From: Oscillospiraceae bacterium
GTDB taxonomy: Bacteria > Bacillota > Clostridia > Oscillospirales > Acutalibacteraceae
Assembly (NCBI GenBank): GCA_902774035.1
Contig: CACYHA010000016.1
Location: 798-64,797, forward strand
Direction of reading: 5' to 3'
Length of the DNA stretch: 64,000 bases
The position numbers were made by a program, and so were the translations under genes. This document shows positions 247 to 45,398 of the stretch, one piece after another; the first letter of the stretch is position 1; every line of letters starts with the position of its first letter. The notes below the pieces were generated by a model. That model did no database searches, had not been told where the DNA came from, and saw nothing but the letters and a program-made list of their open reading frames with translations.

Positions 247-1425
247 ATGGTTTGCGTTGGAATTGATGTGGCAAAGGACAAGCATGACTGCTTCATCCTC
301 AGTTCAGAAGGTGAAGTGCTGGCCGACGTCTTTACAATCGAGAACAACCGGGAAGGTTTCGACACACTGCTGCAACAAATTCGATCCTGCACCGGTCCAA
401 CAGACAAAATAAAGGTAGGGCTTGAGGCTACCGGACACTACAGCTACAACATCCTCGGGTTTCTTCTCGAGAAAGGGATGCCGCCCTATCTCATTAACCC
501 GCTGCACACCAATCTCTACCGTAAGAGTCTCAGCCTTCGACAAACCAAGACAGACCGTATCGATGCGCGAACGATTGCAACTATGCTCATGTCTGATGTG
601 GACCTCAAGTCCTACACAGACACAGCATACCACAACGAAGAGCTAAAGTCACTAACAAGATATCGTTTTGACAAAGTTTCTGAGAGAGCCAAACTCAAAC
701 AGTCTGTCTCCCGCTTGGTCGTTATTCTGTTTCCGGAACTCGAAAAGCTCGTGCCGTCGCTGCATTTGGCGTCTGTTTACGCTATGCTCAGCCAGTTCCC
801 CAGTGCAAAGCAGATTGCACAGGCGCATCTGACACACTTTAAAGCTGTTCTGTCTGAAGCGTCCAAAGGCCGGTATGAGCGAGAGAAAGCTGTTGAGATT
901 CGTGACGCTGCCAGACGATCTGTCGGCTCCGTCATGCCTGCTAAGTCCCTGGAACTCCGGCACACCATTTGCCTAATTCAGGAACTGGACAAGGAGATTG
1001 AGGAAGTCGAAGCAGAGATCTTTGCTATCCTTGACACAGTGCAGTCTCCTATTACCACGATCCCCGGCATGGGGCCGCGCATGGGAGCGATGATTCTGGC
1101 CGAGGTCGGTGACTTCTCTCGGTTCGATTCGCCGGACAAGCTCTTGGCCTATGCTGGCCTTTCTCCATCTACCTACCAATCCGGCAAGCTCAACGCTACC
1201 GGCGCTTACGCCCACATGGAAAAGCGAGGCTCGCGTTATCTTCGGTATGCCATCTTTAACGCCACAAAGTACGTTTGCATTTGGGACCCGACATTCAAGG
1301 CTTACCTTGCCCAGAAGCGAGCCGAGGGCAAGCACTACAACGTCGCAATCTCTCACGCAGCCAAGAAGCTCGTGCGCTTGATCTACGCCATGCAGCGAAC
1401 CGGCAAGCCATACCTGCCTGCCTAA
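247..1425 (+). CDS. IS110 family transposase (DEDD recombinase)
   Basis: 392 aa. N-terminus MVCVGIDVAKDKHDCFIL and the C-terminal PGMGPRMGAMILAEVGD..YAGLSPSTYQSGK block are typical of IS110/IS1111 transposases. GGAGG RBS at 235-239. Confidence 0.95.
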   Translation: MVCVGIDVAKDKHDCFILSSEGEVLADVFTIENNREGFDTLLQQIRSCTGPTDKIKVGLEATGHYSYNILGFLLEKGMPPYLINPLHTNLYRKSLSLRQTKTDRIDARTIATMLMSDVDLKSYTDTAYHNEELKSLTRYRFDKVSERAKLKQSVSRLVVILFPELEKLVPSLHLASVYAMLSQFPSAKQIAQAHLTHFKAVLSEASKGRYEREKAVEIRDAARRSVGSVMPAKSLELRHTICLIQELDKEIEEVEAEIFAILDTVQSPITTIPGMGPRMGAMILAEVGDFSRFDSPDKLLAYAGLSPSTYQSGKLNATGAYAHMEKRGSRYLRYAIFNATKYVCIWDPTFKAYLAQKRAEGKHYNVAISHAAKKLVRLIYAMQRTGKPYLPA

Positions 1426-3575: not shown

Positions 3576-3590
3576 CAAACGAAAAAAGGA

Positions 3591-5039: not shown

Positions 5040-5420
5040 GTATAAAAACGATAAAAGCAGAAACCTCTTTTGTCTGCCATGAAGGTATTAATATTCCTTC
5101 AATCAAGAGTGCGCTTATTCTCTCAAGTAACGATAATTATCGTGAATTTGTTCAAAGGCGAGGTAGAATACTACGCCTTTACGATGATGGAGTTACAAAA
5201 AAAGATAAAGCAAATATATATGATGTAATCGTATTGCCTTCGCATGCAAATAACTCACGCCCGAGAAGAAATGGAAAAAAGTGTTAAAAATACACTTAAT
5301 GAATGTGTGCGAGAAACATTTTGCAAGCTTACTACTCAGGGTGACGTCTGTCAGACTCGACCAGTGGTAAAACGCCCAAACTGTTTCAATATTTACATTG
5401 ATAAGATCGATGGCATCGAC
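5036..5420 (+). pseudogene. Remnant of a superfamily-2 helicase / restriction-enzyme res-subunit C-terminus
   Basis: ..CHEGINIPSIKSALILSS..FVQRRGRILRL.. matches helicase motifs V and VI but there is no N-terminal half. The frame breaks near 5250. The patch is visibly AT-rich compared with its flanks. Confidence 0.5.
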
Positions 5421-5427
5421 GTAAAAG

Positions 5428-5456
5428 AGCCGCGATTCCGATCGGATCGCGGCTGC
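5428..5456 (-). terminator. Hairpin ending the minus-strand cooC-to-dehydratase operon
   Basis: AGCCGCGAT-N9-ATCGCGGCT stem followed on the minus strand by CTTTT, 19 nt after the stop of the 59-aa ORF. Confidence 0.55.
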
Positions 5457-5474
5457 CGTTGTTTTTTCGGGTGC

Positions 5475-5654
5475 TCAGAACCGTCTGTCCCGCGGAACGC
5501 GGTCGGTGATTTTGTTCAGGATCCTGTGAAGCACGAACATGAACTTGTTGTCCAGATTCAGCCAGTAGACTGCCTGAATCGCGCCGAAGACGAGAGCGGC
5601 GAGGCCGAGCAGAACGCCGGCGGGTTTGCAGATGAGAAGAATCGCTTTTTTCAT
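5475..5654 (-). CDS. 59-aa membrane peptide, last gene of the operon (below the ORF-track cutoff)
   Basis: MKKAILLICKPAGVLLGLAALVFGAIQAVYWLNLDNKFMFVLHRILNKITDRVPRDRRF. AAGGAGG RBS 7 nt upstream overlaps the stop of the preceding gene. Confidence 0.65.
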   Translation of the reverse strand: MKKAILLICKPAGVLLGLAALVFGAIQAVYWLNLDNKFMFVLHRILNKITDRVPRDRRF

Positions 5655-5666
5655 ACCCGTGCCTCC

Positions 5667-7205
5667 TTACCAGCCCTTGGAATCGTCGAATTCGAGAAGC
5701 GAAGCGTCCAGCGGCTGTTCGTTCATCACCGTGAACATAAAGTCGTTGAACTGCTTACGCATTTCGCTGCGTGGGATCGACCGCGGATCGATCAGGTCGT
5801 GTGCGATCCATACCAGCGGGATACCCTTTTCGTTCGCGGTATCCTGAATGATCCCGGTCATGGTCTTGCTGCCCTTGCAGGTGATGTCGTCGTAGTAGAC
5901 GATCATATCGCAATTGAAGCGCTCGTATTCCTCAAACAGCTCCAGCATATTTTCGTAGCCGCCCACAAGGTGCCGCCGCATAATGGCCTGCTCCCAGAGC
6001 TGCGCCACGCCCCACAGAGCCTCTTCCTTATCGTTTTCGTCGATATATTCATGGTGGCTCATATTGTTGAGCACGCACACGGTGTTCACGCCCCAGCACT
6101 CATACATCCAGGTGGAAAAGTGCATATAATAGGAACTCGGCGCGCCGCACACCAGCGTGCGGTGGCGGGTTTTCGGGCGGACGTTAATCTTTTCTTTCAC
6201 ACACTTTTCGCAGATGGCCAGCATCTCGCGGCCGATTTTCGCGCAGTTTTCGTTGAGGCCGCTGGAGAACGAGAGCTGGAACGAACGGTACAGCAGGTTC
6301 GGCACGCTCGGCACCGGATAATAAGGGGATTTTGCAAGCTCCCATAATTCGTGCTGGATGCGCGTCTCCTCGTTATACTGCCGGACCGTTTTGAAGAACG
6401 CGTCCCAGTCGAAGGTCTCGCCCGTGCAGTCCTCAATGAATCTGATCACTTCTTTTACGTGCGCGATCGCGTATTCGCGGGTGTCCTCATCCTTCCAGCG
6501 CATCGGCGTGCAGCCCTGAATGGAGGGCACCTTCAGCCGTCGCTCCACCACCGAGGAATTCATCACCGAGGAATCGCAGGGCGCGTTGCTGGTAACAAGG
6601 CAAGCGCCGTAATACGGGAGCTGGTCGTCGATTGCCACGCCGCACACCACGCTGGAGTTGCGGCAGGAATCCGACGGCAGGCCGTAGGAATCGATGATAT
6701 CAGTAAAATAATGCCCGGCGTGCTGGTCGTTGGCGGTGGCGAGGATGCCGAAGTAGGGCTCCTCCACCGCGTTCGTCAGGTTCGGGAAACCGCCGATCAA
6801 TATCGGGGAGGCGTCCTGCTCGAAGATGACCATCTTTTCGGCGTATTCGTTTTTGCCGAAGCGCTCGTCCGCCCGGATGATTTTTATAAGCGCCTCCACG
6901 TTGCTTTTCAGCAGGAACTGCATATATTTGTGGGCGATCAGAAGCGCCTCGCCGTGCGCGTCGTCGATGGTGCGGTCCACCATGCTGCCGCTGCCGAGGT
7001 ACGGCGCGAGCCAGTGGTAGTACGTAAGCGCCTTGAAAGCCCGCACGGGATCGGCTTTGATCAGCTCGCCGCTGATCTTTTTCTCCGTCAGCCATTCGCG
7101 GAAATCCACCCACGAATCCTTAAAGCCGCGCCATTTGCGCCAGCGGGCGAGCTCGTAGCCGTTGTAAAAGCGTCTGCGCGTGTTTTTTGCTTTTTTCTCC
7201 GCCAT
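5667..7205 (-). CDS. 2-hydroxyacyl-CoA dehydratase / benzoyl-CoA reductase family subunit (large, 512 aa)
   Basis: HgdA/BcrC/BadD-like sequence with many conserved Cys. 3-nt gap to the partner subunit. N-terminal extension of about 120 aa. Confidence 0.8.
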   Translation of the reverse strand: MAEKKAKNTRRRFYNGYELARWRKWRGFKDSWVDFREWLTEKKISGELIKADPVRAFKALTYYHWLAPYLGSGSMVDRTIDDAHGEALLIAHKYMQFLLKSNVEALIKIIRADERFGKNEYAEKMVIFEQDASPILIGGFPNLTNAVEEPYFGILATANDQHAGHYFTDIIDSYGLPSDSCRNSSVVCGVAIDDQLPYYGACLVTSNAPCDSSVMNSSVVERRLKVPSIQGCTPMRWKDEDTREYAIAHVKEVIRFIEDCTGETFDWDAFFKTVRQYNEETRIQHELWELAKSPYYPVPSVPNLLYRSFQLSFSSGLNENCAKIGREMLAICEKCVKEKINVRPKTRHRTLVCGAPSSYYMHFSTWMYECWGVNTVCVLNNMSHHEYIDENDKEEALWGVAQLWEQAIMRRHLVGGYENMLELFEEYERFNCDMIVYYDDITCKGSKTMTGIIQDTANEKGIPLVWIAHDLIDPRSIPRSEMRKQFNDFMFTVMNEQPLDASLLEFDDSKGW

Positions 7206-7208
7206 GAC

Positions 7209-8402
7209 TCAGCCCTCCTTTGCCAGCTTCTTGATCTCAAGCGACTCCGTGAACGCCTGAAAACGGGTGCGCAGCTGCCCCACGGAGGTGTTTACGTATT
7301 CTTTTTCGATGCCAATGCACGGCAGGCCGTATTCCTCTTCCATCACGTGCTGGCAGTACATGCGCTCGTATTCCCAGTATTCGCAGAACTTCATCTGCTG
7401 CACGATCAGACCGTCGGCGTGATATTCTTCGGCAAGCTGTTTCAGATACGCCTTTCTGCCGTGCACCTTTTCGGGGTTCATGAAGCGCGGGCACTGGTTG
7501 GTCTCAATGTAATGGCGGGCGACGGCCGAAAGCGGCGTTTCGCCTTCTCTGATTTCGATCTCTTCTCTGCCCGGCAGCGAGCCGAAGCAGTAGCGGTCCG
7601 CAACGACGAACGCCCCCGCGTCCTCGATCAGTTTCGTGAATTCTGGATCGTCGTTCTCGCCGCCGGCAAGCACAACGCGCACGCGGTACCACGGCTTTTC
7701 GTCCGGCTTTCTCATTTTCAGTTCTTCCAGCGTCTCTTTGAGATACGGCAATATAAGGTCGTGCGGGCAGCACTCGCTCACGAGCTCGATCAAGTGGAAC
7801 TCATACCCCGTGAGCGGCGGGTTTTCAAGTTTGCGGTACGCGCCGATCTCGCTGACGACCCGGCACAGTTCGTTGTGCTTCTCGATCGCCGAACGCAGCG
7901 CTTCATCGGAGACGTCCGTACCGTATACCTCGCTGAGTTTCGTAAGAACGTGGTTTCTCAGCTGGCGCTCATAGTGCTTCAGCGCGTAATCCTTCGTCAC
8001 GAACGGCGAGTCGATATGGCTCACGAAGAAGTTTTCATTACAGTCCCTCACAAGGTTCAGCATCTCGAAATGCTCGTGGGCGCGGTGCATCATGCCGCAG
8101 GTCTCGGTGGAGATCAGCGCGTCGAAGAAGTTATAGCCGCCCTCGATCGCGCGCTCCAGAAGGCTCCGGGAATACATACAGGTCTTCTCGCTCATGTAGT
8201 AGGTGGCGATGGAGATGTCCGTGATGCCCGGCGCGCGCATACGCACCGAGAAGCAGCCGTCGAGGTTCAGAAGCACTTCGGGCACGTAATAGCAGGAGTA
8301 ACCCAACGCCTTCTTCCCTTCGGCGAGCGCTTCGTCTACGAGTTCGTTTTTGACGTCGCCGAGCAGGCGCTCGAAAAAAACGCGGTGTTTTAAGTCTCTC
8401 AC
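7209..8402 (-). CDS. 2-hydroxyacyl-CoA dehydratase family subunit (397 aa)
   Basis: HgdB/BcrB-like sequence (..ALGYSCYYVPEVLL.., ..RYCFGS.., ..QQMKFCEYW..). 4-nt overlap with the activase gene. Confidence 0.8.
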   Translation of the reverse strand: MRDLKHRVFFERLLGDVKNELVDEALAEGKKALGYSCYYVPEVLLNLDGCFSVRMRAPGITDISIATYYMSEKTCMYSRSLLERAIEGGYNFFDALISTETCGMMHRAHEHFEMLNLVRDCNENFFVSHIDSPFVTKDYALKHYERQLRNHVLTKLSEVYGTDVSDEALRSAIEKHNELCRVVSEIGAYRKLENPPLTGYEFHLIELVSECCPHDLILPYLKETLEELKMRKPDEKPWYRVRVVLAGGENDDPEFTKLIEDAGAFVVADRYCFGSLPGREEIEIREGETPLSAVARHYIETNQCPRFMNPEKVHGRKAYLKQLAEEYHADGLIVQQMKFCEYWEYERMYCQHVMEEEYGLPCIGIEKEYVNTSVGQLRTRFQAFTESLEIKKLAKEG

Positions 8403-9196
8403 GCTTTTGCGCCTCCCTTTCTTCTGGCAAATTCGGCGGCGCCCAGCGCCCCCATAAGCTGCGGGTCCACAGCCAGATCCGTCACCCTGATCTTCAGCAC
8501 CTTTTCAATGGCCTTTTTCAGTCCCTCGTTCTTTGCGCAGCCGCCGGTGAGTGTGATGCTGTTTACGGCTCCGGCTTTTTTTGCCATCACGAAACAGCGG
8601 CGTGCCACCGCCATCTGAATGCCGGCGGCGATCTCTTCGGGCGCTTTTCCCTCGCCCACCAGCGCGATCACCTCGGATTCGGCGAACACCGTGCACTGCG
8701 CCGTGATCGGGATCGCCGTTTTTGCTTTGAGCGAAAGTGCGGAAAACTCCTCAAGGCTCATCTCGAACGAGCGTGCCATCGCCTCATAGAACCGCCCGGT
8801 CCCGGCGGCGCATTTGTCGTTCATTGCAAAGTTCTTCACCGTGCCGTCGGGCGCCACCGCAATGCCCTTCACGTCCTGGCCGCCGATGTCGATGATGGCC
8901 TTCACCGTGGGATCAACTGTATGCACGCCCATCGCGTGACAAGAGATCTCGCTCACATTCTCGTCAGCAAACGGCACACGGTTTCGGCCGTAGCCGGTAC
9001 CGATGATATAGCTCAGGTCTTCGGTGCTTTTCAGCGCCGCGATCTGTGAGATGCAGTCTGCCATCGCCTTTTCGGAAGACTGCGCGGCGTTCATTTTGCT
9101 GCGCTGAATCGTGCTGGCAGCGATCTTTCCGGTCTCGTCCACGATCACGGCTTTGGTATAAGTGGAGCCTACGTCGCAGCCGCCGTAGTATTTCAT
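8399..9196 (-). CDS. BcrAD/BadFG-type ATPase, activase of 2-hydroxyacyl-CoA dehydratase-like enzymes
   Basis: MKYYGGCDVGSTYTKAVIVDE.. ASKHA fold. The two cluster-bridging Cys contexts NDKCAAGTG and AQCTVFAESE are present. Confidence 0.9.
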   Translation of the reverse strand: MKYYGGCDVGSTYTKAVIVDETGKIAASTIQRSKMNAAQSSEKAMADCISQIAALKSTEDLSYIIGTGYGRNRVPFADENVSEISCHAMGVHTVDPTVKAIIDIGGQDVKGIAVAPDGTVKNFAMNDKCAAGTGRFYEAMARSFEMSLEEFSALSLKAKTAIPITAQCTVFAESEVIALVGEGKAPEEIAAGIQMAVARRCFVMAKKAGAVNSITLTGGCAKNEGLKKAIEKVLKIRVTDLAVDPQLMGALGAAEFARRKGGAKA

Positions 9197-9387
9197 TCTG
9201 TTTCCCCCTCAACGAGTATGATGTTTTCAAGCAGGTCGATCTCAAGGATCCTGCCCGGAATACACGTTTTTTTGCCCATCAGATCGTAAACCACGACCTC
9301 GTTTTCGCCCGGGATCACCCGCGCGATGTTTTTGCAAAGGAACACGTTTTCTTCCGCGCCCTTTGTGTATACCGAAGACAAGCACAT
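9193..9387 (-). CDS. cooT: CooT-family nickel-binding protein
   Basis: 64 aa starting MC (Cys2). Length and beta-rich pattern (..VVVYDLMGKK..ILEIDLLENIILV) are like CooT. Confidence 0.7.
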   Translation of the reverse strand: MCLSSVYTKGAEENVFLCKNIARVIPGENEVVVYDLMGKKTCIPGRILEIDLLENIILVEGETE

Positions 9388-9389
9388 AT

Positions 9390-9608
9390 TCAGCCCTCCG
9401 TTTCTTCGATGGCTTCGCGCAGCTTCTGCGTGGAGACGTTCAGCAATTCGATGGCCTCGCGCACGTGCGCCGCCGCCTTTGCGGGGAGAGAAGCCGCGAG
9501 CGCTTCAAGCTCCCCGGCATGGTGCGCGTTGTGGTCCGCCATATATTTCAAAAGCGCCTGCGCTTCGCTGTCCGCCGTGCCGTGGATGTGGCTGTGTTCG
9601 TGGTTCAT
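9390..9608 (-). CDS. His-rich small protein, putative metal-binding accessory factor
   Basis: 72 aa. MNHEHSHIHG.. N-terminus and HNAHHAGE motif; otherwise helical. Confidence 0.6.
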   Translation of the reverse strand: MNHEHSHIHGTADSEAQALLKYMADHNAHHAGELEALAASLPAKAAAHVREAIELLNVSTQKLREAIEETEG

Positions 9609-10321
9609 CGTTTTCCTTCCTTTCTGAAATGCAGTTCTCTTAAGCCGTCGATCTCGTCGCAGATCGGCTTCATCTTGCAGGACGCGCAGTCAAGCTCGTC
9701 CAGCTGAAGCGTGCTCTGCACCGCGTCGGTGATCTTTTTCGCTTTGCCCGCCAGAACGGACAGCGCCTTGTAATCAAATGCAGGATCGGTGATAAACACA
9801 GTCTGTACGTTTTCAACGTCCGGCTGTTTTAGAAACGCTTTGATCAGGCTGCTGCCGACGTTCAGGAACGAGAGCGGCGGATTTTTTTGCAGCGCCGCCC
9901 TCGCCACGCGCACCTGCTCTTTGCCTGCGGCGGGCGAGATACGGATATGGTAGCCTGCGGGATATAGCTGAAACACGGTGAATCCCACCGTTTTCAGCCG
10001 TTCGGACGAAAGCGCCGCTTCTTCGGTCTCTTTCAGTTTTACAACGGTAAAATGCCCGAAGGAAACGTCGGATGAGATCTCCGAAAGATCCGGTCCGTAC
10101 AGCAGCGTTTCGCTCTGTCCTTCCGGCAGATCGGCAAACAATACGGCTTCGGCGCTCTGCTTCCCGCCGCCGCCCAGCTCGTAGGCGGTATCGGCGGCGA
10201 AGAGGATACGGTCTTTTTCGCCGTCGGGGGCGCACAGTTTCGCTGCGTAAACGGCCCGTTTCGTCGGAACGGCGGGCAGAAGCGCGCGCATCTGCCGTAA
10301 AACGTCGTTATACAGTTTCAT
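9605..10321 (-). CDS. Acetyl-CoA synthase (AcsB/CdhC) central-domain-like protein lacking the A-cluster domain
   Basis: 238 aa from MKLYND (GGGGGA RBS). ..AYELGGGG.., GPDLSEI and VQTVFITD blocks resemble my memory of Moorella AcsB residues around 330-500. C-terminal C-x2-C-x5-C. Confidence 0.5.
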   Translation of the reverse strand: MKLYNDVLRQMRALLPAVPTKRAVYAAKLCAPDGEKDRILFAADTAYELGGGGKQSAEAVLFADLPEGQSETLLYGPDLSEISSDVSFGHFTVVKLKETEEAALSSERLKTVGFTVFQLYPAGYHIRISPAAGKEQVRVARAALQKNPPLSFLNVGSSLIKAFLKQPDVENVQTVFITDPAFDYKALSVLAGKAKKITDAVQSTLQLDELDCASCKMKPICDEIDGLRELHFRKEGKR

Positions 10322-11066
10322 CGTCGTCCCCCAGCAGTTTTTCGAGCGCTTTTTTTGCGCCAAGATACAGCGGAGAATCCTGCGGCAGGCTGAAAACGCT
10401 TTCGCCTCTCATGTCGTTTTCGCACTGGCGGCGGTCGTCCCCGATCACGGCGAGCAGGTCCGGAAGCTCCGGCACGAAATCTCCCGGCACACGGTTCACG
10501 ATCACGCCCGTTTTTTCGCATGAGACGAGCCGCTCTGCCACGCCCCGGATCGTTTCGGTCACCTGCAGGCCCTTCCGGCTCCCATCCGTGACGAGTACCA
10601 GATAATTGATATGCTCCAGCACGCGGCGATTGATCTGCTCGATGCCCGCCTCGCCGTCGATCACCACGAAATCATAATTGCCGGAGATGGTTTCGATCAC
10701 CTGCTTTAAGTAGGCGTTCACCTTGCAGTAGCATCCCGCGGCTTCCGGCCGCCCGATGGCAAGGAAGGAGATATTGCCGCGCTCCGTGATGCAGTCCAGC
10801 AGGTGGAATCTTGATTCGCTCAGGAGCTCCGCCGCGGCATTCATTTCACCCTTTTCGATGCTTTCGGCAATCTGCAGGCGCACGTCGTCGATCGTTTTTT
10901 TCGGTTCTGTCCCCAGCGCCGCAGAAAGTCCCACGGCAGGATCGGCGTCCACGGCGAGGATCCGTTTTTCGGGGTACGTTTCGGATAAAATACGGATAAA
11001 CGCGGCGGAGAGCGACGTTTTGCCCACGCCGCCCTTACCGGTAAATGCAAAAACCTTCGTTTCCAT
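10308..11066 (-). CDS. cooC: CooC-type P-loop ATPase (nickel-insertion / metallocluster maturation factor)
   Basis: 252 aa from METKVFAFTGKGGVGKT (deviant Walker A). CooC-typical AAGCYCKVN C-x-C motif. AGAGGGG RBS. The ORF-track upstream extension has no support. Confidence 0.85.
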   Translation of the reverse strand: METKVFAFTGKGGVGKTSLSAAFIRILSETYPEKRILAVDADPAVGLSAALGTEPKKTIDDVRLQIAESIEKGEMNAAAELLSESRFHLLDCITERGNISFLAIGRPEAAGCYCKVNAYLKQVIETISGNYDFVVIDGEAGIEQINRRVLEHINYLVLVTDGSRKGLQVTETIRGVAERLVSCEKTGVIVNRVPGDFVPELPDLLAVIGDDRRQCENDMRGESVFSLPQDSPLYLGAKKALEKLLGDDDETV

Positions 11067-11192
11067 ATAAAAACCCCTCTTACAAATCCTGATTGGGCAA
11101 CATCCCGACAAGCCGAAATTATTACGTTTGATCTTTTTTTGAAATGGTCCACAATCAGACACGGATACAGATTCTATCTTGATGGCATCTAA

Positions 11193-11221
11193 ATTATACC
11201 ATAGATTGGAACGGTTTGCAA
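11193..11221 (-). promoter_or_regulatory. Sigma-A-type promoter of the cooC operon
   Basis: Minus strand reads TTGCAA-N17-TATAAT. It leaves a leader of about 120 nt before the cooC start. Confidence 0.6.
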
Positions 11222-11677
11222 GATACTTTGTTTTGCTATTTATCAACGATCTGACTGACTTAGCTCATTTTTATCGCCGTTTTCTATCTTTTGTCGGTGA
11301 TAACACAAGCGAGTTGTTCATCCTAAATGACCGTTGATTCTCTTTAAAACGAAAAAAGGCACGCTCATTTGCGGCGTGCCTGCAATAGATGGAATTAGCG
11401 AAAAACAGTATGAAATAACAATTTCAGAGAAGCACGTCCTAAACAGCACAGAGGTTGTTGTGATATGAAACTCTGTGAAGACAGAGCAAAGACATATTAT
11501 AATACCGATCAGGATATTTTGCAGGCGTTAGAAGCGAAACAGAAAAAAACTGCAATTCACAAAAGCCGACCTCAACCGCGTGACGGGTGAGCTCTTCCGA
11601 GATTTGAAAAAATTTCCCATTTATATAGACAAAACAGAAAAAATATGCTAAACTGTACATAACTTATCAAAAAGGGG

Positions 11678-11706
11678 TTGACAGGCATGGCGGCGTATGC
11701 GATAAT
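11678..11706 (+). promoter_or_regulatory. Near-consensus sigma-A promoter firing into the AGCA repeat
   Basis: TTGACA (11678-11683), exactly 17 nt of spacer, GATAAT (11701-11706). Confidence 0.7.
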
Positions 11707-11710
11707 CCTT

Positions 11711-11875
<165 letters not shown>

Positions 11876-11911
11876 CGTAACTCTGTCTTTCTTGAATCAC
11901 CTTTGAAAACC

Positions 11912-11955
11912 CGGCTGTAACAAGGCGTGTGCTTTGTTGCGGCCGTTTTTTATTT
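11912..11955 (+). terminator. Intrinsic terminator between the repeat and the surface-protein gene
   Basis: 15-bp stem CGGCTGTAACAAGGC / GCTTTGTTGCGGCCG (3 G-U pairs), loop GTGT, then TTTTTTATTT. Confidence 0.7.
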
Positions 11956-12002
11956 CAAAACCACTGCCTGGGCGCATAAGCAGGCAAAAAGGAGGTAACC
12001 TT

Positions 12003-14783
12003 ATGCAAAAAACTATCATCCGTAAACCCATCAGCATCCTGCTTTCGCTGCTGCTGGTGCTGTCCGTCTTCGGCGGCATGGCGTTCACCGCTTCCGCGGT
12101 CGCTACCGGCACATATGGCAACGCGACCTGGACGCTGGACGACGACGGCCTTATGACCGTGTCCGGCACCGGCGAGTTTGCGCCGGAATTTGATTACGAC
12201 TTTGGCACGCAAATCAAGTCTGTTGTGATCGGCGACGGCATTTCTGGAATCGGCGATTTAACTTTCGACAACTGCATAAACATGGAGTCCGTTGAAATTG
12301 GCAACGGCATAACAGAGATCCCGACTAAGGAATTCATGAATGCCTCGAGCCTGACAAGCGTAAAGCTTGGCAAGAACGTGCGCTCCATTGGTGCCAATAA
12401 CAGTTATTTTACGAACCTTTTGACTCGGACCGAGACCGATGAGACCGGTTATACGGTATCTGTCGAAGGTTTTCTGAAGGGCACCGGCAACTATGCCGGC
12501 CAGATGTTCAAGGCAGTTGTGAAAAAGAACGGCGAAGTCGTTCCCGGCCCGTTTCTGATGAAGTGGTCAGTGGTTACGAATTATTCTAGCGCTACTTCTA
12601 TGAATGCTCGTGCATCGAGACCAACGCCGTACTATGCAACCACCAGCGATCCGCTTTATGATTATGGCCCTTATGGTTATGCTCACTCTCGGATTCACAC
12701 GTTGAAATGCGACGTTTTCCGCGTTACCGAAGACGGCAAAGGTATTGAAAAACTCTGTTCCGGTTCAAAATCCGGCCTGATCAATTATAATGATGACCGG
12801 TCTTCTTGGACTAATAATGAATTGGAAAATTCAACCGCCTTCATTTCCACGTTTCTTTTTGTCGGCAACACCTCAGACTACTTAAAGAGCACGATCGGCA
12901 AAGCGGGATTTGCCCATGTGGATTGTAATAAAGTCTATATCACCTTTACGAACAACCTGACGCCAGCCGCCCAACAGGTCCTGCGCGTGGAAAACAGCAC
13001 TAACGGAAGGTTTGTAGCGATTGCCCCCGGCATTGCTGATGTTACCTATACCATCTATACAAGCGGATGCGAAGCGCACCAAACGCAGTTTACAGCCGCC
13101 CAACCCCGGACCGCGGGTATCAGATATATCGTGTTGCGCAAGCCGACCGTGACACCCGCAGCCAGAGAACTGACCTTTAATTTCCCCGAACTGCCCGACC
13201 TCGGCGACAGCGAGCTGACCATTACATTGAACGGCGAAACCAAGACCGTGACGGCTGCCAACAGCACCGTGAAATTCACCGGTCTGAATCCCGAATCGAA
13301 CTATCCCTACACCCTGTTGGCAGGCAACGCGGAAAGAGGCTACGCGTATGCGGACGACAACGCCGCAACGCTTCCCGCCCCGCCGCACGAACACAGCTTC
13401 AACTATGCTGCTGAGGGTGCGACCCTGACCGCCACCTGCCGGAACGCAGACTGCGATCTGCCGGCCGGCGCCGTTTCCTTCACGATCAACGCCCCCGAAA
13501 AGACCACGTACAACGACGGCAAAACCGCAGCCGCAACGCTCACCGATGATGTTGCCGCGTTCAACGAAGCCACCAGCGAAGCCACCGGCAAAACCGTTTC
13601 TGCCGCCGACATCGAGTATTACGAGGGCGACCAGCAGCTTGACGCCGCCCCCGTAAACGCCGGCACCTATCAGGCGCGCATCACCGTGGAAGACGCGACC
13701 GCCGTTGTGGAATACACCATTGCCAAAGCCGACCCGGCTTATACCGAACCCAGCCTGACTGCCACCTACGGCGACACGCTGGGAAGCATTGAACTGCCCA
13801 CAGGCTGGAGATGGAAAGACAGCAGCACCTCCGTCGGCAATGTTGGCGAAAAGACCTTCAAAGCGACCTTCACTCCGACCGACACCGAGAACTACAACAC
13901 CGTGGAAGACATCGACGTGACCGTGATCGTCGGCAAGGCGATCCCGGATTATCAGATCCCGAATCTGACCGCAACCGTGGGCGACACGCTGGCCGATGTG
14001 ACCCTGCCCGACGGCTGGAGATGGAAAGACGACAGCGAACCTGTTGGCGCTGTTGGCAAAAAGAGCTTCAAGGCGACCTTCACGCCCGAAGACACCGACA
14101 ACTTCCTTGTGATGGAAGACATCGACGTGACCGTGAATGTCGGCAAAGCCATCCCGAGCTATGAGGCCCCGAGCCTGACCGCCACCTACGGCGACACGCT
14201 GGCTGATGTGACCCTGCCCGACGCCGAAAACGGCACCTGGAGATGGAAAGACGACACCGAACCTGTTGGCGCGGTTGGCGAAAACAGCCGCATCGCCGTG
14301 TTCACCCCCAACGACACCGACACTTATGCCGAGGTGGAAGTGCCTGTGAGGGTCACCGTCGGCAAAGCGACCCTGAACGTTGACGCTCCCACCGGTCTGA
14401 CCGCAACCGAAGGCGACACCCTTGCAAGCGTGACTCTGCCCGAAGGCTGGAGCTGGAAAGACAACAGCGAATCCGTCGGCGCAGCCGGTGAAAAGACCTT
14501 CAAGGCCACCTTCACGCCCGCCGACACCGCAAACTACAACACTGTGGAAAACATCGACGTCACTGTGACCGTCAAGGCTGCAACGCCGGATACCCCGGAC
14601 ACACCCGACACACCTGACACGCCGGATACACCCGACACCCCGGATACTCCCGCGAAGGGCGACTTCCGCTGCGGTTTCTGCGACGCTTACGAGCGTTGGA
14701 AGGATACGCCGATGGTCGGCTGGATCGTCAGCCTGATCCACATCTTTGTCCACCTTGCCGCCCATGTCGGCGAAACGACCTGA
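12003..14783 (+). CDS. Secreted surface protein: BspA-type LRR region, four 70-aa tandem repeats, (TPD)7 linker, His-containing hydrophobic tail
   Basis: Start MQKTIIRKP with a GGAGG RBS at 11991 and a signal peptide. LRR_5-like segment DGISGIGDLTFDNCINMESVEIG. Repeats ..LTATYGDTL..LP.GWRWKD..FKATFTP.DT.NY.. span 13740-14582. Confidence 0.85.
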   Translation: MQKTIIRKPISILLSLLLVLSVFGGMAFTASAVATGTYGNATWTLDDDGLMTVSGTGEFAPEFDYDFGTQIKSVVIGDGISGIGDLTFDNCINMESVEIGNGITEIPTKEFMNASSLTSVKLGKNVRSIGANNSYFTNLLTRTETDETGYTVSVEGFLKGTGNYAGQMFKAVVKKNGEVVPGPFLMKWSVVTNYSSATSMNARASRPTPYYATTSDPLYDYGPYGYAHSRIHTLKCDVFRVTEDGKGIEKLCSGSKSGLINYNDDRSSWTNNELENSTAFISTFLFVGNTSDYLKSTIGKAGFAHVDCNKVYITFTNNLTPAAQQVLRVENSTNGRFVAIAPGIADVTYTIYTSGCEAHQTQFTAAQPRTAGIRYIVLRKPTVTPAARELTFNFPELPDLGDSELTITLNGETKTVTAANSTVKFTGLNPESNYPYTLLAGNAERGYAYADDNAATLPAPPHEHSFNYAAEGATLTATCRNADCDLPAGAVSFTINAPEKTTYNDGKTAAATLTDDVAAFNEATSEATGKTVSAADIEYYEGDQQLDAAPVNAGTYQARITVEDATAVVEYTIAKADPAYTEPSLTATYGDTLGSIELPTGWRWKDSSTSVGNVGEKTFKATFTPTDTENYNTVEDIDVTVIVGKAIPDYQIPNLTATVGDTLADVTLPDGWRWKDDSEPVGAVGKKSFKATFTPEDTDNFLVMEDIDVTVNVGKAIPSYEAPSLTATYGDTLADVTLPDAENGTWRWKDDTEPVGAVGENSRIAVFTPNDTDTYAEVEVPVRVTVGKATLNVDAPTGLTATEGDTLASVTLPEGWSWKDNSESVGAAGEKTFKATFTPADTANYNTVENIDVTVTVKAATPDTPDTPDTPDTPDTPDTPDTPAKGDFRCGFCDAYERWKDTPMVGWIVSLIHIFVHLAAHVGETT

Positions 14784-14801
14784 TGAAAGGAGAACAATAC
14801 C

Positions 14802-14924
14802 ATGGAAATCGGAAGAGAAGTTTGGGATTCCCTGCTGGAAGCGTATGAAAACGCAAAGGAAGCGATCAACTTTTTCATGGACGCTGTGAAAAAGATCATG
14901 AGCTTCTTCGATAAGAAAGACTGA
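14802..14924 (+). CDS. 40-aa amphipathic ORF downstream of the surface-protein gene (below the ORF-track cutoff)
   Basis: MEIGREVWDSLLEAYENAKEAINFFMDAVKKIMSFFDKKD. AAAGGAG RBS 8 nt upstream. Followed by a terminator. Confidence 0.5.
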   Translation: MEIGREVWDSLLEAYENAKEAINFFMDAVKKIMSFFDKKD

Positions 14925-14941
14925 GCTGTAACAAGCTGAAT

Positions 14942-16079: not shown

Positions 16080-17738
16080 ATGAACATGAAAAACATCAAA
16101 ACAAAACTGACCGCTATTCTGCTGGCCCTCGTCCTGCTGCTCTCGGCACTGCCGATGTTCGCGTTTGCAGAGAATCCGGGCCTGCCTTCGCTCCCCGGTC
16201 ACGGGCAGAGCGGCAACCAGCCCGAGATGCCGGGAAGCGGCGGCCTCAAAGGCGACACCGAGCCGGACAAACCCGACATCAACGGCGGCACGTCCAATTA
16301 TGTCAACAACACCTCTATGCAGATTTTCGTGCGCACGCTGACCGGCAAAACGCTCACGCTTGAAACGGTGCCGAACGACACGATCGAAAACATCAAGCAG
16401 AAGATCCAGGAAAAAGAAGGCATTCCGCCCGATCAGCAGCGGCTGATCTTCAACGGCACGCAGCTGGAAGACGGCAGAACGCTCGCCGACTACAACATTC
16501 AAAAGGAAAGCACCCTGCATCTGGCGCTGCGCATTCGCGGCGAGATCGGATTCACCGAAGCGAACTTCCCCGACGCAAACCTTCGTGAATTTGTCAAAAC
16601 CTTCGACACCGACGGCAGCGGTACGCTCAGTGCGGACGAGTGCGCCGTCGTGACCGAGATCGACACCTGGTCTGCGCGCGTCGCCGTGACCGACTATACC
16701 GGCATCGAATGGTTCCCGAATCTGAAAGCGCTGAAGTGTATGCCGACGAGTGGCACCATTCACTTGGACGTCAGCGCCAACACCGCGCTGGAGATTCTTC
16801 ACAGCCGCAGCAACGCACTCGCATCACTTGACCTCAGCGACAATCCCGCGATGAAAGACATCGACCTCTATAATGCGCCTCTTTCCTCGATTGACGTTTC
16901 CGCTTGTCCCGCGCTCGAGAAGCTGCACGTCGGCGAAACCGGGATCCAGACGCTCGACCTCAGCGGCAATCCCGTGCTGAAGACGCTCTATTGCTTCGGC
17001 AACGGGATGCAGACGCTCGATCTCAGCGCCAACCCCTTGTTGAAGCGTTTGATTTGCAGCAACAATCTTTTCAAAACGCTCGATCTCCACTTGAACACTG
17101 CGCTGGAGGTGCTGGAAGGCTACGGATGTTCTTTTGAAACGCTCGACCTCAGCGGCAATCCCTCGCTGAGACATCTGAGTATTGAAGAGTGCACCTCTTT
17201 GTCAGAGCTGGATATCTCTGCTAATCCGCTGCTGAAAAGTGCCGTTGAAGACGGAAACAAAAGGGCTTTTGAAGATTATTTTGAATATAGGTTGTACAGA
17301 AACACCCAGATAGAGGCATTCCTCAGCTGCACAAATACGGTCCAGCTGATCACCGACAGCCTTACAGTGCGCTGCGACGCCAACGGCGGCAGCGGTTCAC
17401 AGACGATTCTTGTTCGCCAGAATGAAAACCTGATTTTGCCGGACTGCGGTCTGACCGCGCCCGAAGGCAAAGAGTTCGACGGCTGGCAGCTCGGCAACGC
17501 GGCCTATCAGCCCGGCGACGAGATCGCGCTGTCGGAAAACACGACCCTGACCGCGCTTTGGAAAGACGCGAGCGCGCAGCCCGAACCGACGACTGCGCCG
17601 CAGGACGGCACAAGTGACCCGGTGTCTTCCAACCTTTGCAAATGGGACAACGTCGATCACGGCACCTCTTTCTTCGGCAGACTGATCGCGTTCTTCCATT
17701 CCGTTCTCTACACGATCACGCACATCTTCAAGCGCTGA
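16080..17738 (+). CDS. Secreted protein: signal peptide, Gly/Pro linker, ubiquitin domain, about 22-aa LRRs, Listeria-Bacteroides-type repeat, His-containing hydrophobic tail
   Basis: 552 aa. Signal peptide ..[12 protein letters not shown] units LDLSGNPxLKxLxCxxNxxxTLDLS. [21 protein letters not shown] repeat domain. Confidence 0.9.
16317..16544 (+). other. Eukaryote-type ubiquitin domain (residues 80-155 of the ORF)
   Basis: [76 protein letters not shown]. 62/76 identical to canonical ubiquitin in a hand alignment with no gaps. Confidence 0.9.
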
Positions 17739-18286: not shown

Positions 18287-18299
18287 CGAGGTGAAACAT

Positions 18300-21859: not shown

Positions 21860-23023
21860 TTGGTTGGAAGCTTAGTTGTAAAAGGCAACAAATACTATGC
21901 AAAGTTTCGGATCGACGGAAAGCAAAAACTCGTCGCAACAGGCATTGACGCGAAAGGCAACAACAAGCGAAAGGCGCAAAAAGCCATGCAGGAGATCATA
22001 GAACGGTATGAGTCTCTGAATCTGGCCTATGAGCGGATCACCTTTGTTGGGTTTTTGGAGCTCTGGCTTCAAAGAATCCGGCCGATCCTAAAGCCTGCCA
22101 CATGGGAATCCTATGAGAAAACGGTCAAAGGAAAAATCAAACCGTATTTTGAAAAGAAAAACATCCTTCTGCGCGAGCTGAAGCCAAACGATCTCACAGA
22201 TTTCTTTTGCTATCTTGCCGCGAGCGGGAATTCGCACACGAAGGGCGGGCTCTGCTATAAAACGGTGAAAAACATCCGCGGCGTGATTTCCTCTGCCTGT
22301 GTGTATGCGGTTCAGAATCAATATATTCTTGAAAATCCGGCAACCAAAAGTCTGCTGCCGTCCTTCGCGCATTCGATTCAAAAGGACGTTCCGCAATATA
22401 CGTCCGAGGAAGCCTCAAAGCTCCTGTCCTTTGCGAAAGAACATGAGAGCCACATTTATATCTTTCTGCTGCTGGCGCTGTTCACCGGAATGCGGAAAGG
22501 GGAGCTTCTGGCATTGACCTGGGATGATATTGATTATGAAAAAAAGATGCTGCGCATCAACAAAAGCCGAACAGGCTGCAGAACCGAAGTGACGATGGCC
22601 GTTACAACGCCGAAAACGCTCAGTAGCAACCGCAATATCCCGCTCAGTGATTTTGTCCTTGCCGAACTCAAAGAGGAGCAAAAGCGGCAAAAACAGCAAG
22701 CGGCACTGTTTGGAAACTGCTATCATAAAGAGCAGGATTTTGTCATCCGTAATGCGCTCGGTGAACCGTATGCCAATCTGAGCGCCATCAATCGGGTGCT
22801 GAATCGGCTGGAGAAAAATGCAGGACTGCCGCACTGTACGATCCACGGTCTGCGCCATTCGGTGGCAAGCATTCTGGATGAAAACGGAGTCGCGCTGCAG
22901 GATATCTCCATACTGCTCGGACATGAAAGTGTTCTGACAACAGAAAAGATTTATATCCGCCGAAACAGGACAGCAAAGGCATCCACGATCAATGTTTTAG
23001 ACAGAACCGTCAAAGTATCCTAA
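21860..23023 (+). CDS. Tyrosine site-specific integrase
   Basis: 387 aa, TTG start after a GGAAGGAG RBS. C-terminal HGLRHS..LLGH..TTEKIY catalytic motifs. N-terminal AP2/SAM-like arm-binding region. Confidence 0.92.
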   Translation: MVGSLVVKGNKYYAKFRIDGKQKLVATGIDAKGNNKRKAQKAMQEIIERYESLNLAYERITFVGFLELWLQRIRPILKPATWESYEKTVKGKIKPYFEKKNILLRELKPNDLTDFFCYLAASGNSHTKGGLCYKTVKNIRGVISSACVYAVQNQYILENPATKSLLPSFAHSIQKDVPQYTSEEASKLLSFAKEHESHIYIFLLLALFTGMRKGELLALTWDDIDYEKKMLRINKSRTGCRTEVTMAVTTPKTLSSNRNIPLSDFVLAELKEEQKRQKQQAALFGNCYHKEQDFVIRNALGEPYANLSAINRVLNRLEKNAGLPHCTIHGLRHSVASILDENGVALQDISILLGHESVLTTEKIYIRRNRTAKASTINVLDRTVKVS

Positions 23024-43613: not shown

Positions 43614-45215
43614 TCAGGTTGCGGGAAGCTCCGGAACGATCAGCCTTGCCTGCCGCATCTCCCTGCCGAAATAGGCGCCCATGGTGCCTTCGGCCGGGTT
43701 GACGAGGATGCCGATGTATGCGCCGAAGCGTTTGAACATTTTTGCGTGGATGGCGTCGTCGCCTGTGCTGTATTGCAGCTCGCTTTGCACGGGATGGCTG
43801 TGGATGAACCCGAGGAACTTCATCGGCTGCCGGTTGCTGCATTCGCTGCCGGTCAGCGCGCGGTCGTCGCTGGCGTAATAGTTGCGGTTGATGATGTCCA
43901 GCTCGTGCATCACGGTGCGCAGGATCTTTCCGGTGAAGATCGCATTGTCCTCGGCCCGCAGCGCGCCGTCGCAGGGGATCACATAGCGCACAACGTCGGT
44001 GTTCCCGCAGGAAAAGCCGATCAGCGCCATCTGCTGTTCAAACATGGATTGCGGGTGCTTGCGCCCGAGATGGAAGTATTGCGCGACCGAGCGAAAGGCG
44101 TCCGGCTCCATCAGAACCTCCCGCGCATCGTTCGCGTCGCCGGAGATCTCAAAAAACGAAAGGTGCGCATACTGCCGGAACAGGGCCGATTTATAAAGCT
44201 GCACATCCGGCTGCTCCAGAAAATCGCGATAGCAGAACAGCGGCTCGCCGCGCTCAAAATCGAGCGTGTGCAGGGAATCGCCGCCGCAATCCGCGTGGTG
44301 GACGCAGCTTTTGCATTTCTCCGGCAGGGGACGGTGCCTGAAAAAGGAAAAGCGGTTTTTCCAAACGTCGCTGAAGCTGTCGGTCAGAATGTTGCCCTGG
44401 ATCAGCTCCGGCTGATGGGGCACGTTCGGGCAAACAAAGATGTCGCCGTTGAAGAGGATGGATGCACTGCAGATGCCGGCAAAGCAGTGAAAGCGCCGGT
44501 TGTCAAGCTGCGTTCCGAGAAAGTGCGGGCAGCCCCAGATGATCTTTGTCGGATTCGGGCCGCTGTTGATCCGGTTCGCCAAAGCGGTGAGATAAAGGAT
44601 CTCTTCCCGCGTCAGCAGCAGCTCTGTGTTGTCCAGTGCGCGGCCGATGGGATCCATAAAGCTGACCCGGATGGAATCCAGCCCGATCGGGCGCAGGATA
44701 TCGTATAGCGCCTCGAATTCATAGATGTTGCGTCGGTTGGCGGTGAACGTCACCTGCAGATGGTCAAGAAACCGGGCCGCTTTCAGCTTTTTGAGCGCGG
44801 TCATGATCCTGTCCCAGCACCCCGGAAGGTGCCGCAGGGAATCGTGCGTTTCGCGCAGACCGTCAACGCTGACCGTGACGGTCTTCATTCCGCTGCTTTG
44901 CATACGCCGGATGACCTCATCCGTGATTAGCGAACCGTTGGTGACCATGCCCCACTCAAAGCCCATGGCGGAAGCTTCAGTCATGATCTCGAACAGGTCG
45001 CGCCGCAAAAGCGGCTCGCCGCCGGTGATGTTGAGCATGGTATAAGTGCCGATGTGCTCCCGGATGTCGCGCAGAGCGGCAAGGATCTGCTCCCCGGAAA
45101 GCCTTTCTTCGCTGTGGATGTCGCATCTGCTGCCGCACTGGTCGCAGGCGGCGTTGCATTTTTTTGTGATCTCGATCAGCAGCGTATAGAGCGGGTAGGG
45201 CTCCTGCATTTTCAT
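43614..45215 (-). CDS. Radical SAM / SPASM enzyme fused to a C-terminal JAB (JAMM/MPN+) metallopeptidase domain
   Basis: CNAACDQC (C-x3-C-x2-C). SPASM CKSCVHHADCGG (C-x2-C-x5-C). C-terminal ..EQQMALIGF.. plus FIHSHPVQSELQYSTGD (H-x-H-x8-S-x2-D). Start at 45215 or 45209. Confidence 0.85.
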   Translation of the reverse strand: MKMQEPYPLYTLLIEITKKCNAACDQCGSRCDIHSEERLSGEQILAALRDIREHIGTYTMLNITGGEPLLRRDLFEIMTEASAMGFEWGMVTNGSLITDEVIRRMQSSGMKTVTVSVDGLRETHDSLRHLPGCWDRIMTALKKLKAARFLDHLQVTFTANRRNIYEFEALYDILRPIGLDSIRVSFMDPIGRALDNTELLLTREEILYLTALANRINSGPNPTKIIWGCPHFLGTQLDNRRFHCFAGICSASILFNGDIFVCPNVPHQPELIQGNILTDSFSDVWKNRFSFFRHRPLPEKCKSCVHHADCGGDSLHTLDFERGEPLFCYRDFLEQPDVQLYKSALFRQYAHLSFFEISGDANDAREVLMEPDAFRSVAQYFHLGRKHPQSMFEQQMALIGFSCGNTDVVRYVIPCDGALRAEDNAIFTGKILRTVMHELDIINRNYYASDDRALTGSECSNRQPMKFLGFIHSHPVQSELQYSTGDDAIHAKMFKRFGAYIGILVNPAEGTMGAYFGREMRQARLIVPELPAT

Positions 45216-45225
45216 CACCCTTTTT

Positions 45226-45254
45226 AATGTATCACAGATCGGCCGCGTTGTCAA
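45226..45254 (-). promoter_or_regulatory. Promoter of the rSAM-JAB operon
   Basis: Minus strand reads TTGACA-N17-TACATT. The predicted start site lies only about 4-10 nt before the start codons. Confidence 0.55.
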
Positions 45255-45398
45255 CCGGAAAAGCCGATCGTTCCGCCGAAAACCGCCGCTTTTCGTTTCG
45301 GAAAATCTTGGAAATTTTTGGCTGCAACCTGTAGACAAGCCGTTTTTTCCGTGATAAAATGACAGGGAAGACGGAATGAAAAATGAAGGAGAAATCAT

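Follow-up and report, generated by a model that had tools for sequence, protein, structure and literature searches.

The subject of this report is an operon of eight genes at 11066..5475 on the minus strand of the window, the stretch of 64,000 nucleotides from an Oscillospiraceae bacterium that was analysed (assembly GCA_902774035.1, contig CACYHA010000016.1, positions 798 to 64,797 of the forward strand). It joins the genes of an activase-driven enzyme with two HGD-D-type subunits, which is nearest to the class I benzoyl-CoA reductases (BCRs), to genes for a CooC-like ATPase, a CooT, a His-rich protein, a membrane peptide and a stand-alone homologue of the middle domain of acetyl-CoA synthase (ACS), and the core of this linkage recurs in no fewer than four gene orders. 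On the basis of the gene identities, the conservation of the metal ligands and the conserved linkage, it is proposed that the operon encodes an ATP-driven low-potential radical enzyme together with its own CooC-type pathway of metallocentre maturation, the metal probably being nickel; we give this proposal an even chance of being correct. To our knowledge the nickel enzymes so far recognized comprise only some nine kinds, CooC and CooT are tied only to CO dehydrogenase (CODH) and AcsF only to ACS, and the activase-driven enzymes of the BCR, 2-hydroxyacyl-CoA dehydratase (HAD) and double-cubane cluster protein (DCCP) types have been described as iron–sulfur only and as assembled without dedicated maturases. 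A module joining both worlds would imply a novel centre containing nickel or a heterometal, an additional task for a CooC-type ATPase or a new role for an ACS domain, and the linkage suggests that enzymes of this class can be assembled or operated in a manner not yet described.

The enzyme is encoded by three adjoining genes (coordinates of all operon genes refer to the minus strand). The activase, an ASKHA-type [4Fe–4S] protein of the BcrAD/BadFG/HgdC family (8399..9196, 265 aa), was identified by PF01869 (E = 7e-57) and by TIGR00241 (216 bits against a cutoff of 125). Its residues Cys129 and Cys168 are invariant among orthologues and correspond to the bridging-cluster ligands of HgdC. The smaller subunit (7209..8402, 397 aa) is a BzdN/DCCP-like HGD-D protein (PF06050, E = 3.9e-90) with BzdN (8s02_B, E = 1.1e-27) as its best match in the PDB, followed by DCCP (6eno, 7yyl) and HadC. 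In BzdNO the [8Fe–9S] double cubane is held by BzdN Cys36, Cys73, Cys100, Cys263, Cys293 and Cys327 and the catalytic [4Fe–4S] cluster by BzdO Cys95, Cys128 and Cys380 (PMC11971306). Residues Cys37, Cys75, Cys102, Cys272, Cys304 and Cys340 of the 397-aa subunit align to the six BzdN ligands and are all 100% conserved (n = 40 orthologues), and an [8Fe–9S] double cubane is predicted for this subunit.

The larger subunit (5667..7205, 512 aa; PF06050, E = 4.3e-38) is a BzdO/HadB-like HGD-D protein and the putative catalytic subunit. Its sequence is only weakly similar to those of BzdO and MbdO. A model calculated with AlphaFold 2 (AF2; predicted local distance difference test, pLDDT, 86.3) was compared with the PDB using Foldseek and matched BzdO best (8s02_C, E = 6e-15), then HadB (E = 2e-13), MbdO and DCCP. 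Cys181 and Cys210 align to BzdO Cys95 and Cys128/129 (the alignment around Cys210 is one residue off) and Cys443 to the third cysteine of MbdO; all three are invariant. The subunit carries in addition a helical N-terminal extension of ∼120 residues and a further invariant cysteine, Cys370 (Cys370-Trp371-Gly372), outside the known cluster-ligand positions. Cys370 was considered as a cluster ligand and rejected: in the model it is placed at the end of a helix before a β-strand, on the face of the sheet that points away from the predicted cluster site, and it is absent from the distant relative at locus L090.

The family assignments made for the activase and the two large subunits in the original prediction, which was drawn from the letters of the window, therefore stand. 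That prediction had also called the enzyme a low-potential reductase or dehydratase: the superfamily was confirmed, but the enzyme is nearest to a BzdNO-type class I BCR and not to a classical dehydratase. The equivalog models of NCBIfam all scored below their cutoffs (DCCP 143 against 350 bits, BzdN 91 against 454, HadC 88 against 700, BzdO 31 against 449 and HadB 28 against 750). Because these scores fall so far short, the pair is, as judged from its sequences, a distinct branch of the BCR/HAD/DCCP superfamily with a BzdNO-like predicted cluster content, lying outside every characterized enzyme.

Comparison with the characterized systems brings out the same position. With the class I BCRs BzdNO(PQ) and MbdONQP (PDB entries 8s02 and 9g87; PMC11971306) the operon shares a heterodimer of HGD-D-fold subunits and an ASKHA activase for an ATP-driven reaction, the six cysteines of the best sequence match (BzdN) and the three of the best fold match (BzdO), and a CoA ligase accompanies the complete four-subunit cluster of the distant relative at L090. 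Unlike the BCR systems, the operon has a single activase gene in place of the BzdP/BzdQ pair, a catalytic subunit with the N-terminal extension and Cys370, and the added membrane peptide, CooC-like, ACS-like, CooT and His-rich genes, none of which has been described for BCRs. The DCCP/DCCP-R system (PDB entries 6eno and 7yyl; PMC7317905) resembles the 397-aa subunit in its seven-Cys layout, with a spacing of x169 between the N-domain ligands and those of the C-domain (x166–170 in the motif), and the DCCP model NF040772 is the best, if subthreshold, NCBIfam match of that subunit; the physiological substrate of DCCP is likewise not known. DCCP differs in being homodimeric, its double cubane forming the active site, whereas the operon encodes a heterodimer of the BzdNO kind, and no CooC or ACS-like partner has been described for it. 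The seven-Cys motif was taken from the Haft & Gwadz SAO/double-cubane preprint, which deals with a different system. The 2-hydroxyisocaproyl-CoA dehydratase HadBC–HadI (PDB entry 3o3m) has the same fold and the same activase logic, and the relative at locus L092 is accompanied by a family III CoA-transferase and β-oxidation genes; the operon small subunit differs from HadC, which binds a [4Fe–4S] cluster with an extra sulfide ligand, in its six cysteines of the double-cubane type. The operon thus has components that are found in none of the BzdNO, DCCP and HAD systems.

The last gene (5475..5654) encodes a single-pass membrane peptide of 59 aa, which had been proposed as a gene and is indeed conserved across loci. 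Its conserved motif is YW(L/F)NLDxK...DRxxRDRRF; in the ∼50–60-aa peptides of type II loci (types are defined below) the motif reads Y(F/W)xNLDxK...DR. In window-type loci the peptide gene lies downstream of the large-subunit gene, and in type III loci one follows each of the large-subunit genes; all type II loci examined have the peptide gene between those for the activase and the ACS-like protein. The copy in Blautia celeris (L072, 9762..10001) may carry, depending on the start codon, a Cys-rich N-terminal extension (MKKECCVKTCCIKKHGC...), which from its sequence could be a further metal-binding element.

The first gene of the operon (10308..11066, 252 aa) encodes a CooC-type ATPase of the MinD/ParA class. 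Its start was placed at the ATG at 11066, 7 bases past the ribosome-binding site AGAGGGG, in agreement with the length of 252 aa in homologues. The protein matched AAA_31, CbiA and ArsA_ATPase in Pfam and CooC1, MinD and ArsA in the PDB, and contains the deviant Walker A P-loop GKGGVGKT of the MinD/ParA fold. The CooC-type assignment had been predicted from its motifs; its closest solved relative is CooC1 of Carboxydothermus hydrogenoformans (3kje, E = 2.7e-11), and Cys112-Tyr-Cys114 aligned to the C-x-C nickel site of CooC1, both cysteines being 100% conserved (n = 46 orthologues). Homologues carry the JGI label ‘CO dehydrogenase maturation factor’. The CooT assignment (9193..9387, 64 aa, Met-Cys start) was upheld by PF10133 (E = 1.2e-15, 58 bits against a cutoff of 27, covering residues 1–60 of the 60-position model), and Cys2 is 100% conserved (n = 28 orthologues); in Rhodospirillum rubrum CooT this residue is implicated in nickel binding (PMC6006190). 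Both chaperones have the sequence features that define CooC (P-loop and C-x-C motif) and CooT but not the defining association with CODH, since neither cooS nor acsB accompanies them in the DNA that was checked.

The gene between ACS-like and CooT (9390..9608) encodes a His-rich, helical protein of 72 aa with the N-terminus MNHEHSHIHG and invariant His26, His30 and Glu33 within the motif HNAHHAGE; its homologues carry PF26551 (DUF8180). A profile of 18 DUF8180 proteins showed no similarity to CooJ and nothing significant in the PDB or Pfam, so that the resemblance to CooJ is one of His-rich composition only; a weak NCBIfam match to the ferritin-like EncB was obtained (E = 0.002). Taken together, these genes recall CooC–CooT–CooJ of the R. 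rubrum CODH operon, CooC1 and AcsF, in that a MinD-class ATPase with a C-x-C motif, a CooT with Cys2 and a small His-rich protein are encoded together beside a presumed client. They differ in that the client is neither CODH nor ACS, the His-rich protein shows no detectable similarity to CooJ, and most related loci lack both it and CooT. A looser analogy is offered by the putative isoprene reductase operon of Acetobacterium wieringae (PMC10134865), in which the nickel chaperones HypA and HypB are conserved beside an uncharacterized anaerobic reductase; both the chaperones and the enzyme family are different there.

The second gene (9605..10321, 238 aa) had been recognized in the original prediction as an ACS-like fragment. 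As a single sequence it gave no ACS match in Pfam, NCBIfam or the PDB and one spurious repeat match to IcmE, whereas a profile of 95 homologues matched the ACS middle domain in the PDB (Moorella thermoacetica residues ∼327–495, E = 3.8e-11), and 85 of the 95 family members match PF03598 (CdhC) at E ≤ 1 (best 2.3e-16). When the AF2 model (pLDDT 91.4) was searched against the PDB with Foldseek, the top 21 matches were all ACS (E = 2.7e-9 to 1e-5) and the next match had E = 0.33. Homology to the ACS middle (A2) domain was thus confirmed by family profile and predicted fold. The alignment begins at about residue 323–327 of ACS and residue 31–39 of the 238-aa protein, which therefore has no N-terminal CODH-docking domain, and the protein ends ∼30 residues past the A2 homology. 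The tail Cys212-x2-Cys215-x5-Cys221 is invariant; His231 is invariant among close relatives only. A reading of this tail as the start of the ACS A-cluster motif was considered and found unsupported, as a profile of the last ∼75 residues of the family found no ACS. Judged by sequence, the protein is an ACS domain with a family-specific cysteine motif and not a truncated A-cluster. The A-cluster domain of ACS has four cysteines for its [4Fe–4S] cluster and a Cys-Gly-Cys for Ni–Ni, whereas three cysteines are invariant here. The family comprises 370 clusters at 50% identity and, apart from fragments, nearly all members have ∼230–250 aa; unlike ACS (AcsB/CdhC, PF03598), it is always free-standing at ∼240 aa, without the CODH-binding and A-cluster domains, without a Cys-Gly-Cys and without a detectable match to the Cys506/Cys509 region.

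Whether this protein assists the enzyme or belongs to it bears on the proposal. In an alternative that we consider unlikely, it would be a permanent functional subunit with the substrate-handling role of A2, bearing on its cysteine tail a nickel or Ni–Fe–S site that is loaded by the CooC-like ATPase and contributes to catalysis or helps to transfer electrons or groups in concert with the BzdNO-like core. The ACS-like gene is present in every arrangement found and translationally coupled to its neighbours, its ELGG and RxS..REQVRV motifs align with conserved A2 segments, and CoA-activating genes occur in some loci. In the ACS of Clostridium autoethanogenum it is A2 that provides most of the contacts to acetyl-CoA (bioRxiv 10.1101/2024.08.05.606187). 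The tryptophan of ACS that stacks on the adenine (Trp418 in M. thermoacetica, Trp405 in C. autoethanogenum), however, aligns to Met or His in the ACS-like family, and CoA binding by the protein is for this reason unsupported. The undetectable similarity to the A-cluster domain also argues against a subunit role, as does the fact that BzdNO binds CoA esters unaided (PMC11971306).

The conservation of the linkage was surveyed with an ACS-like profile made from 18 close sequences in one genome per species. At least 559 loci were found, the best 80 of which were fetched and searched with the eight window proteins only; the closest of these 80 was from a goat-omasum Clostridia metagenome-assembled genome (MAG; 98% identity), which probably represents the species of the window. 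The window order (type I; CooC, ACS-like, His-rich, CooT, activase, small subunit, large subunit, peptide, the activase being variable) was seen in 27 loci and was complete in all 12 with enough flank, except that the activase is missing from its place in eight of these 12. The order in the window is therefore conserved, but only in part of the family: other orders occur elsewhere and CooT and the His-rich protein are confined to some subtypes. Type II (CooC, small subunit, large subunit, activase, peptide, ACS-like) accounts for 56 of the 83 loci and was complete in 15 of the 17 with enough flank; it was found in Oscillospiraceae, in Candidatus Limivicinus and in Lachnospiraceae, among them the cultured Blautia celeris NSJ-34. 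Ten distant ACS-like proteins (26–30% identity) were also followed: the module is present in the six cases in which the flank is long enough, and nothing contradicts it in the other four, which lie on short contigs. At L091 the order is DUF8180, CooT, CooC, HGD-D, HGD-D, activase, peptide, ACS-like. L090 carries a BCR-like cluster of four subunits (two HGD-D genes, two for activases, then ACS-like and CooC-like), beyond which lie genes for an AMP-forming CoA ligase, a ferredoxin, an AFOR-family enzyme and thiolases.

Across these four orders (type I, type II, L091 and L090), found in Oscillospiraceae, Lachnospiraceae and environmental anaerobes, the CooC-like and ACS-like genes stay beside the HGD-D pair and an activase. 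The conserved accessory core consists of the CooC-like protein, the ACS-like protein and the membrane peptide. Identities between the window and Blautia are 52% for CooC, 53% for the small subunit, 35% for the large subunit, 76% for the activase and 37% for the ACS-like protein; against L090 they are 41, 26, 25, 42 and 26%, respectively. The flanks differ between loci, which have the core genes alone in common, and no flanking gene that would name a substrate is common to them.

Within the window, all eight ORFs were found where the original prediction had placed them and are translationally coupled; by their coordinates, neighbouring genes overlap by 14, 4, 4 and 4 nt or lie 2, 3 and 12 nt apart. 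The TTGCAA-N17-TATAAT promoter was recovered at 11221..11193 (minus strand) in a promoter scan; it is of the σ70 type, close to consensus (10/12 consensus positions) and extended by a TGn element at −10. A leader of ∼125 nt separates it from the first gene. No Rfam match (a NiCo riboswitch, another riboswitch or a structured leader was sought) was obtained for the leader, and its fold was worse than those of shuffled controls, indicating no unusual structure. Just 3′ of the last gene a terminator-like G+C-rich hairpin (AGCCGCGAT...ATCGCGGCT, 5454..5428) is followed by CTTTT (5424..5454 in all, minus strand); an A-run precedes the hairpin, which may act bidirectionally.

This compact unit and its wide conservation bear on the objection that the linkage is incidental and that the Coo, His-rich and ACS-like genes serve a CODH/ACS or a hydrogenase elsewhere while lying beside an ordinary dehydratase or reductase operon. 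In its favour, the search for CODH/ACS was confined to the window and the fetched loci, and the HypB encoded at L091 may serve a hydrogenase. In addition, cooS is reported from many gut Firmicutes (PMC11338639). Against this stand the overlaps of 4–14 nt within one promoter–terminator unit and the absence, as predicted, of any CODH or ACS (CdhC, Prismane) family match among the 30 large ORFs of the window that were scanned (maximum E = 1e-5); nor did a CODH/ACS gene turn up where genes of the fetched loci were checked (by precomputed Pfam assignments and, for some loci, by scans), the 80 scan loci having been searched with the proteins of the operon only. Above all, incidental linkage is very unlikely because the association has been kept through at least four gene orders in several bacterial families, down to 26% protein identity and with the flanks wholly changed.

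Reading the operon as a reductase with its own maturation pathway, we infer an electron path by homology to BzdNO. Hydrolysis of ATP by the activase homodimer would push an electron from its bridging [4Fe–4S] cluster into the 397-aa subunit, where the [8Fe–9S] double cubane would store and relay electrons and feed the three-cysteine, open-site [4Fe–4S] cluster of the 512-aa subunit. There the substrate, a CoA thioester in at least some relatives, would be reduced or dehydrated via a radical. The ∼55-aa peptide may tether or organize the complex at the membrane. The CooC-type ATPase and the ACS-like protein would be dedicated partners of this enzyme clade: a metal, probably nickel, would be delivered, with ATP being consumed, to cysteines of either the ACS-like protein or the catalytic subunit, analogous to the action of CooC and AcsF on CODH and ACS, with the ACS-like protein as a scaffold, adaptor or subunit at the recipient site. 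In the window subtype nickel may pass from the His-rich protein to CooT and on to CooC, a route like that of CooT and CooJ in R. rubrum. The involvement of nickel or of a heterometal cluster is suggested here by chaperone homology. A bolder form of the proposal, which we regard as possible but put forward tentatively, is that the module represents a new nickel-dependent enzyme class: an ATP-driven reductase of the BzdNO/double-cubane type with a nickel-containing Fe–S site as its working centre. This site would lie on the catalytic or the ACS-derived subunit and be built by a CooC/CooT/His-rich pathway that was borrowed, together with the piece of ACS, from CODH/ACS.

Several observations weigh against the nickel-maturation proposal. 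CooC1 also binds zinc at the same C-x-C site. The A-cluster domain is missing from the ACS-like protein, which has only three invariant cysteines, and the tail profile described above found no ACS. DCCP assembles its Fe–S clusters in Escherichia coli without such factors; BzdNO likewise acquires its clusters, including the double cubane, in E. coli without helpers (PMC11971306). CooT and the His-rich protein are absent from type II and hence from most loci (56/83), and the type II linkage itself is broken at L083 and L067. The HGD-D pairs and peptides of type III occur without CooC, ACS-like or activase genes in cis. No CoA ligase or CoA-transferase lies beside the window operon, and a nickel-related neighbourhood (Nik/HypB, below) was seen in one of ∼96 loci and is anecdotal.

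Part of this evidence would be accommodated by a role without nickel, which we hold to be rather doubtful. The CooC-like ATPase and the ACS-like protein would then build, insert or repair an Fe–S centre, for example by coupling two cubanes into the [8Fe–9S] cluster in the manner in which NifH, also of the MinD family, matures the nitrogenase P-cluster; or they would act as a conformational chaperone or docking factor, with CooT and the His-rich protein handling another metal or serving as a buffer. The lack of both nickel-associated genes in type II fits such a role. So do the MinD/NifH-class fold with a pair of cysteines at the dimer interface, compatible with Fe–S binding, and the three invariant tail cysteines of the ACS-like protein, typical of a cluster site with an open or external ligand. 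It is opposed by the C-x-C motif and by a best structural relative that is specifically CooC, by CooT and the His-rich protein, both of which accompany the module in two gene orders that are independent of each other, and by the unaided acquisition of the double cubane in BzdNO. CooT (PF10133, Cys2), moreover, is known solely as a nickel-binding protein (PMC6006190).

Type III (L084–L086) has the order TetR, ydhR, HGD-D(397), HGD-D(519), 53-aa peptide, HGD-D(394), HGD-D(550), 60-aa peptide. An activase is certainly required by this HGD-D enzyme family, and because none is encoded in cis these loci must use partners encoded in trans; they are therefore no proof that the CooC-like and ACS-like proteins are dispensable. 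In one of the three copies, at L084, a group II intron reverse transcriptase and genes for type IV secretion/conjugation lie alongside the type III locus. As many as 221 collection blocks list the 519-aa protein, a sign that the type III locus may have spread on a mobile element.

Tandem arrangements were also observed. At L012, L013 and L017 (about 3170–14120) a type II cluster that includes an activase of its own is found immediately upstream of a type I cluster, and in some Acutalibacteraceae genomes the type I copies in such tandems have lost their own activase; at L001 only short activase remnants are left between CooT and the small subunit (11152–11348). One activase may serve two paralogous enzymes in these tandem loci. 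No other gene of the module is as conserved as that of the activase, and dozens of independent MAG contigs of type II loci (many within L029–L080) start within it, at a point some few hundred bases upstream from the ACS-like gene. For this reason the contig starts are probably assembly breaks at a near-identical multi-copy gene.

Neighbouring genes give pointers to metal, substrate and electron supply. Nickel is hinted at by the two independent orders that include CooT and the His-rich protein (type I and L091). At 10539–18705, L091 also contains a five-gene ABC importer, whose best NCBIfam matches are NikA–E and nickel permeases, all below cutoff; after it come a tetratricopeptide-repeat (TPR) protein, HypB (TIGR00073, 250 bits against a cutoff of 121) and a large oxidoreductase (see below). 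A CoA thioester is hinted at by the AMP-forming ligase of L090 and by the family III CoA-transferase of L092, which is accompanied by hydratase, dehydrogenase and thiolase (β-oxidation) genes; most loci have neither a CoA ligase nor a CoA-transferase. A flavoprotein of the old yellow enzyme (OYE)/enoate reductase type is encoded directly 3′ of the ACS-like gene in L072 (4-nt overlap) and L092; in L083 its gene is next to the ACS-like gene but on the other strand. Electrons may be supplied by a large Fer4_20/Pyr_redox_2 oxidoreductase, which adjoins the module in L071 and L091. Neighbours of these kinds (OYE-type, GltD-like oxidoreductase, CoA ligase or transferase and Nik/HypB) are sporadic. 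The surroundings in the window give no clue to the substrate: no aromatic-degradation genes lie around the operon and no 2-hydroxyacid dehydrogenase adjoins it.

No description of CooC or CooT with this enzyme family, or of DUF8180, was found in the searchable literature, which is thin in subscription-journal papers, and within it the linkage is undescribed, as the original prediction held. Because the module is frequent in Oscillospiraceae and Lachnospiraceae of the rumen and gut (at least 559 loci), it probably catalyses a common anaerobic transformation. Its size of six to eight genes and the cultured carrier Blautia celeris NSJ-34 make it experimentally tractable.

Antisense ORFs on the plus strand at 5244..6347 (367 aa) and 6351..8393 (680 aa), over the two large-subunit genes, are regarded as shadow ORFs without coding function, of the kind that G+C-rich coding sequence typically shows. 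An (AGCA)n microsatellite (11711..11875, 41.8 copies, 97% matches) sits in the intergenic region between the operon promoter and a divergent BspA-type leucine-rich-repeat (LRR) gene (11934..14783); the odd LACLLACL and ASKQASKQ ORFs are its product. The other large ORFs that were scanned encode transposase, integrase, surface-protein, glycosidase, FeoB and similar sequences, some being without a match. They include an IS110-family transposase (247..1425), a phage-type integrase (21860..23023) and a 760-aa radical SAM/SPASM protein (43614..45896), with no link to the operon. A 552-aa LRR protein (16080..17738, plus strand) contains a ubiquitin-like domain (∼16317..16541; Pfam E = 1.4e-27) that is ∼83% identical (62/75 residues in the PDB alignment) to eukaryotic ubiquitin, with Thr in place of the residue at position 48 and a C-terminal RIRGE instead of RGG. 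From its sequence this domain looks like a horizontally acquired eukaryotic ubiquitin that was fused into a bacterial surface or effector-type protein.

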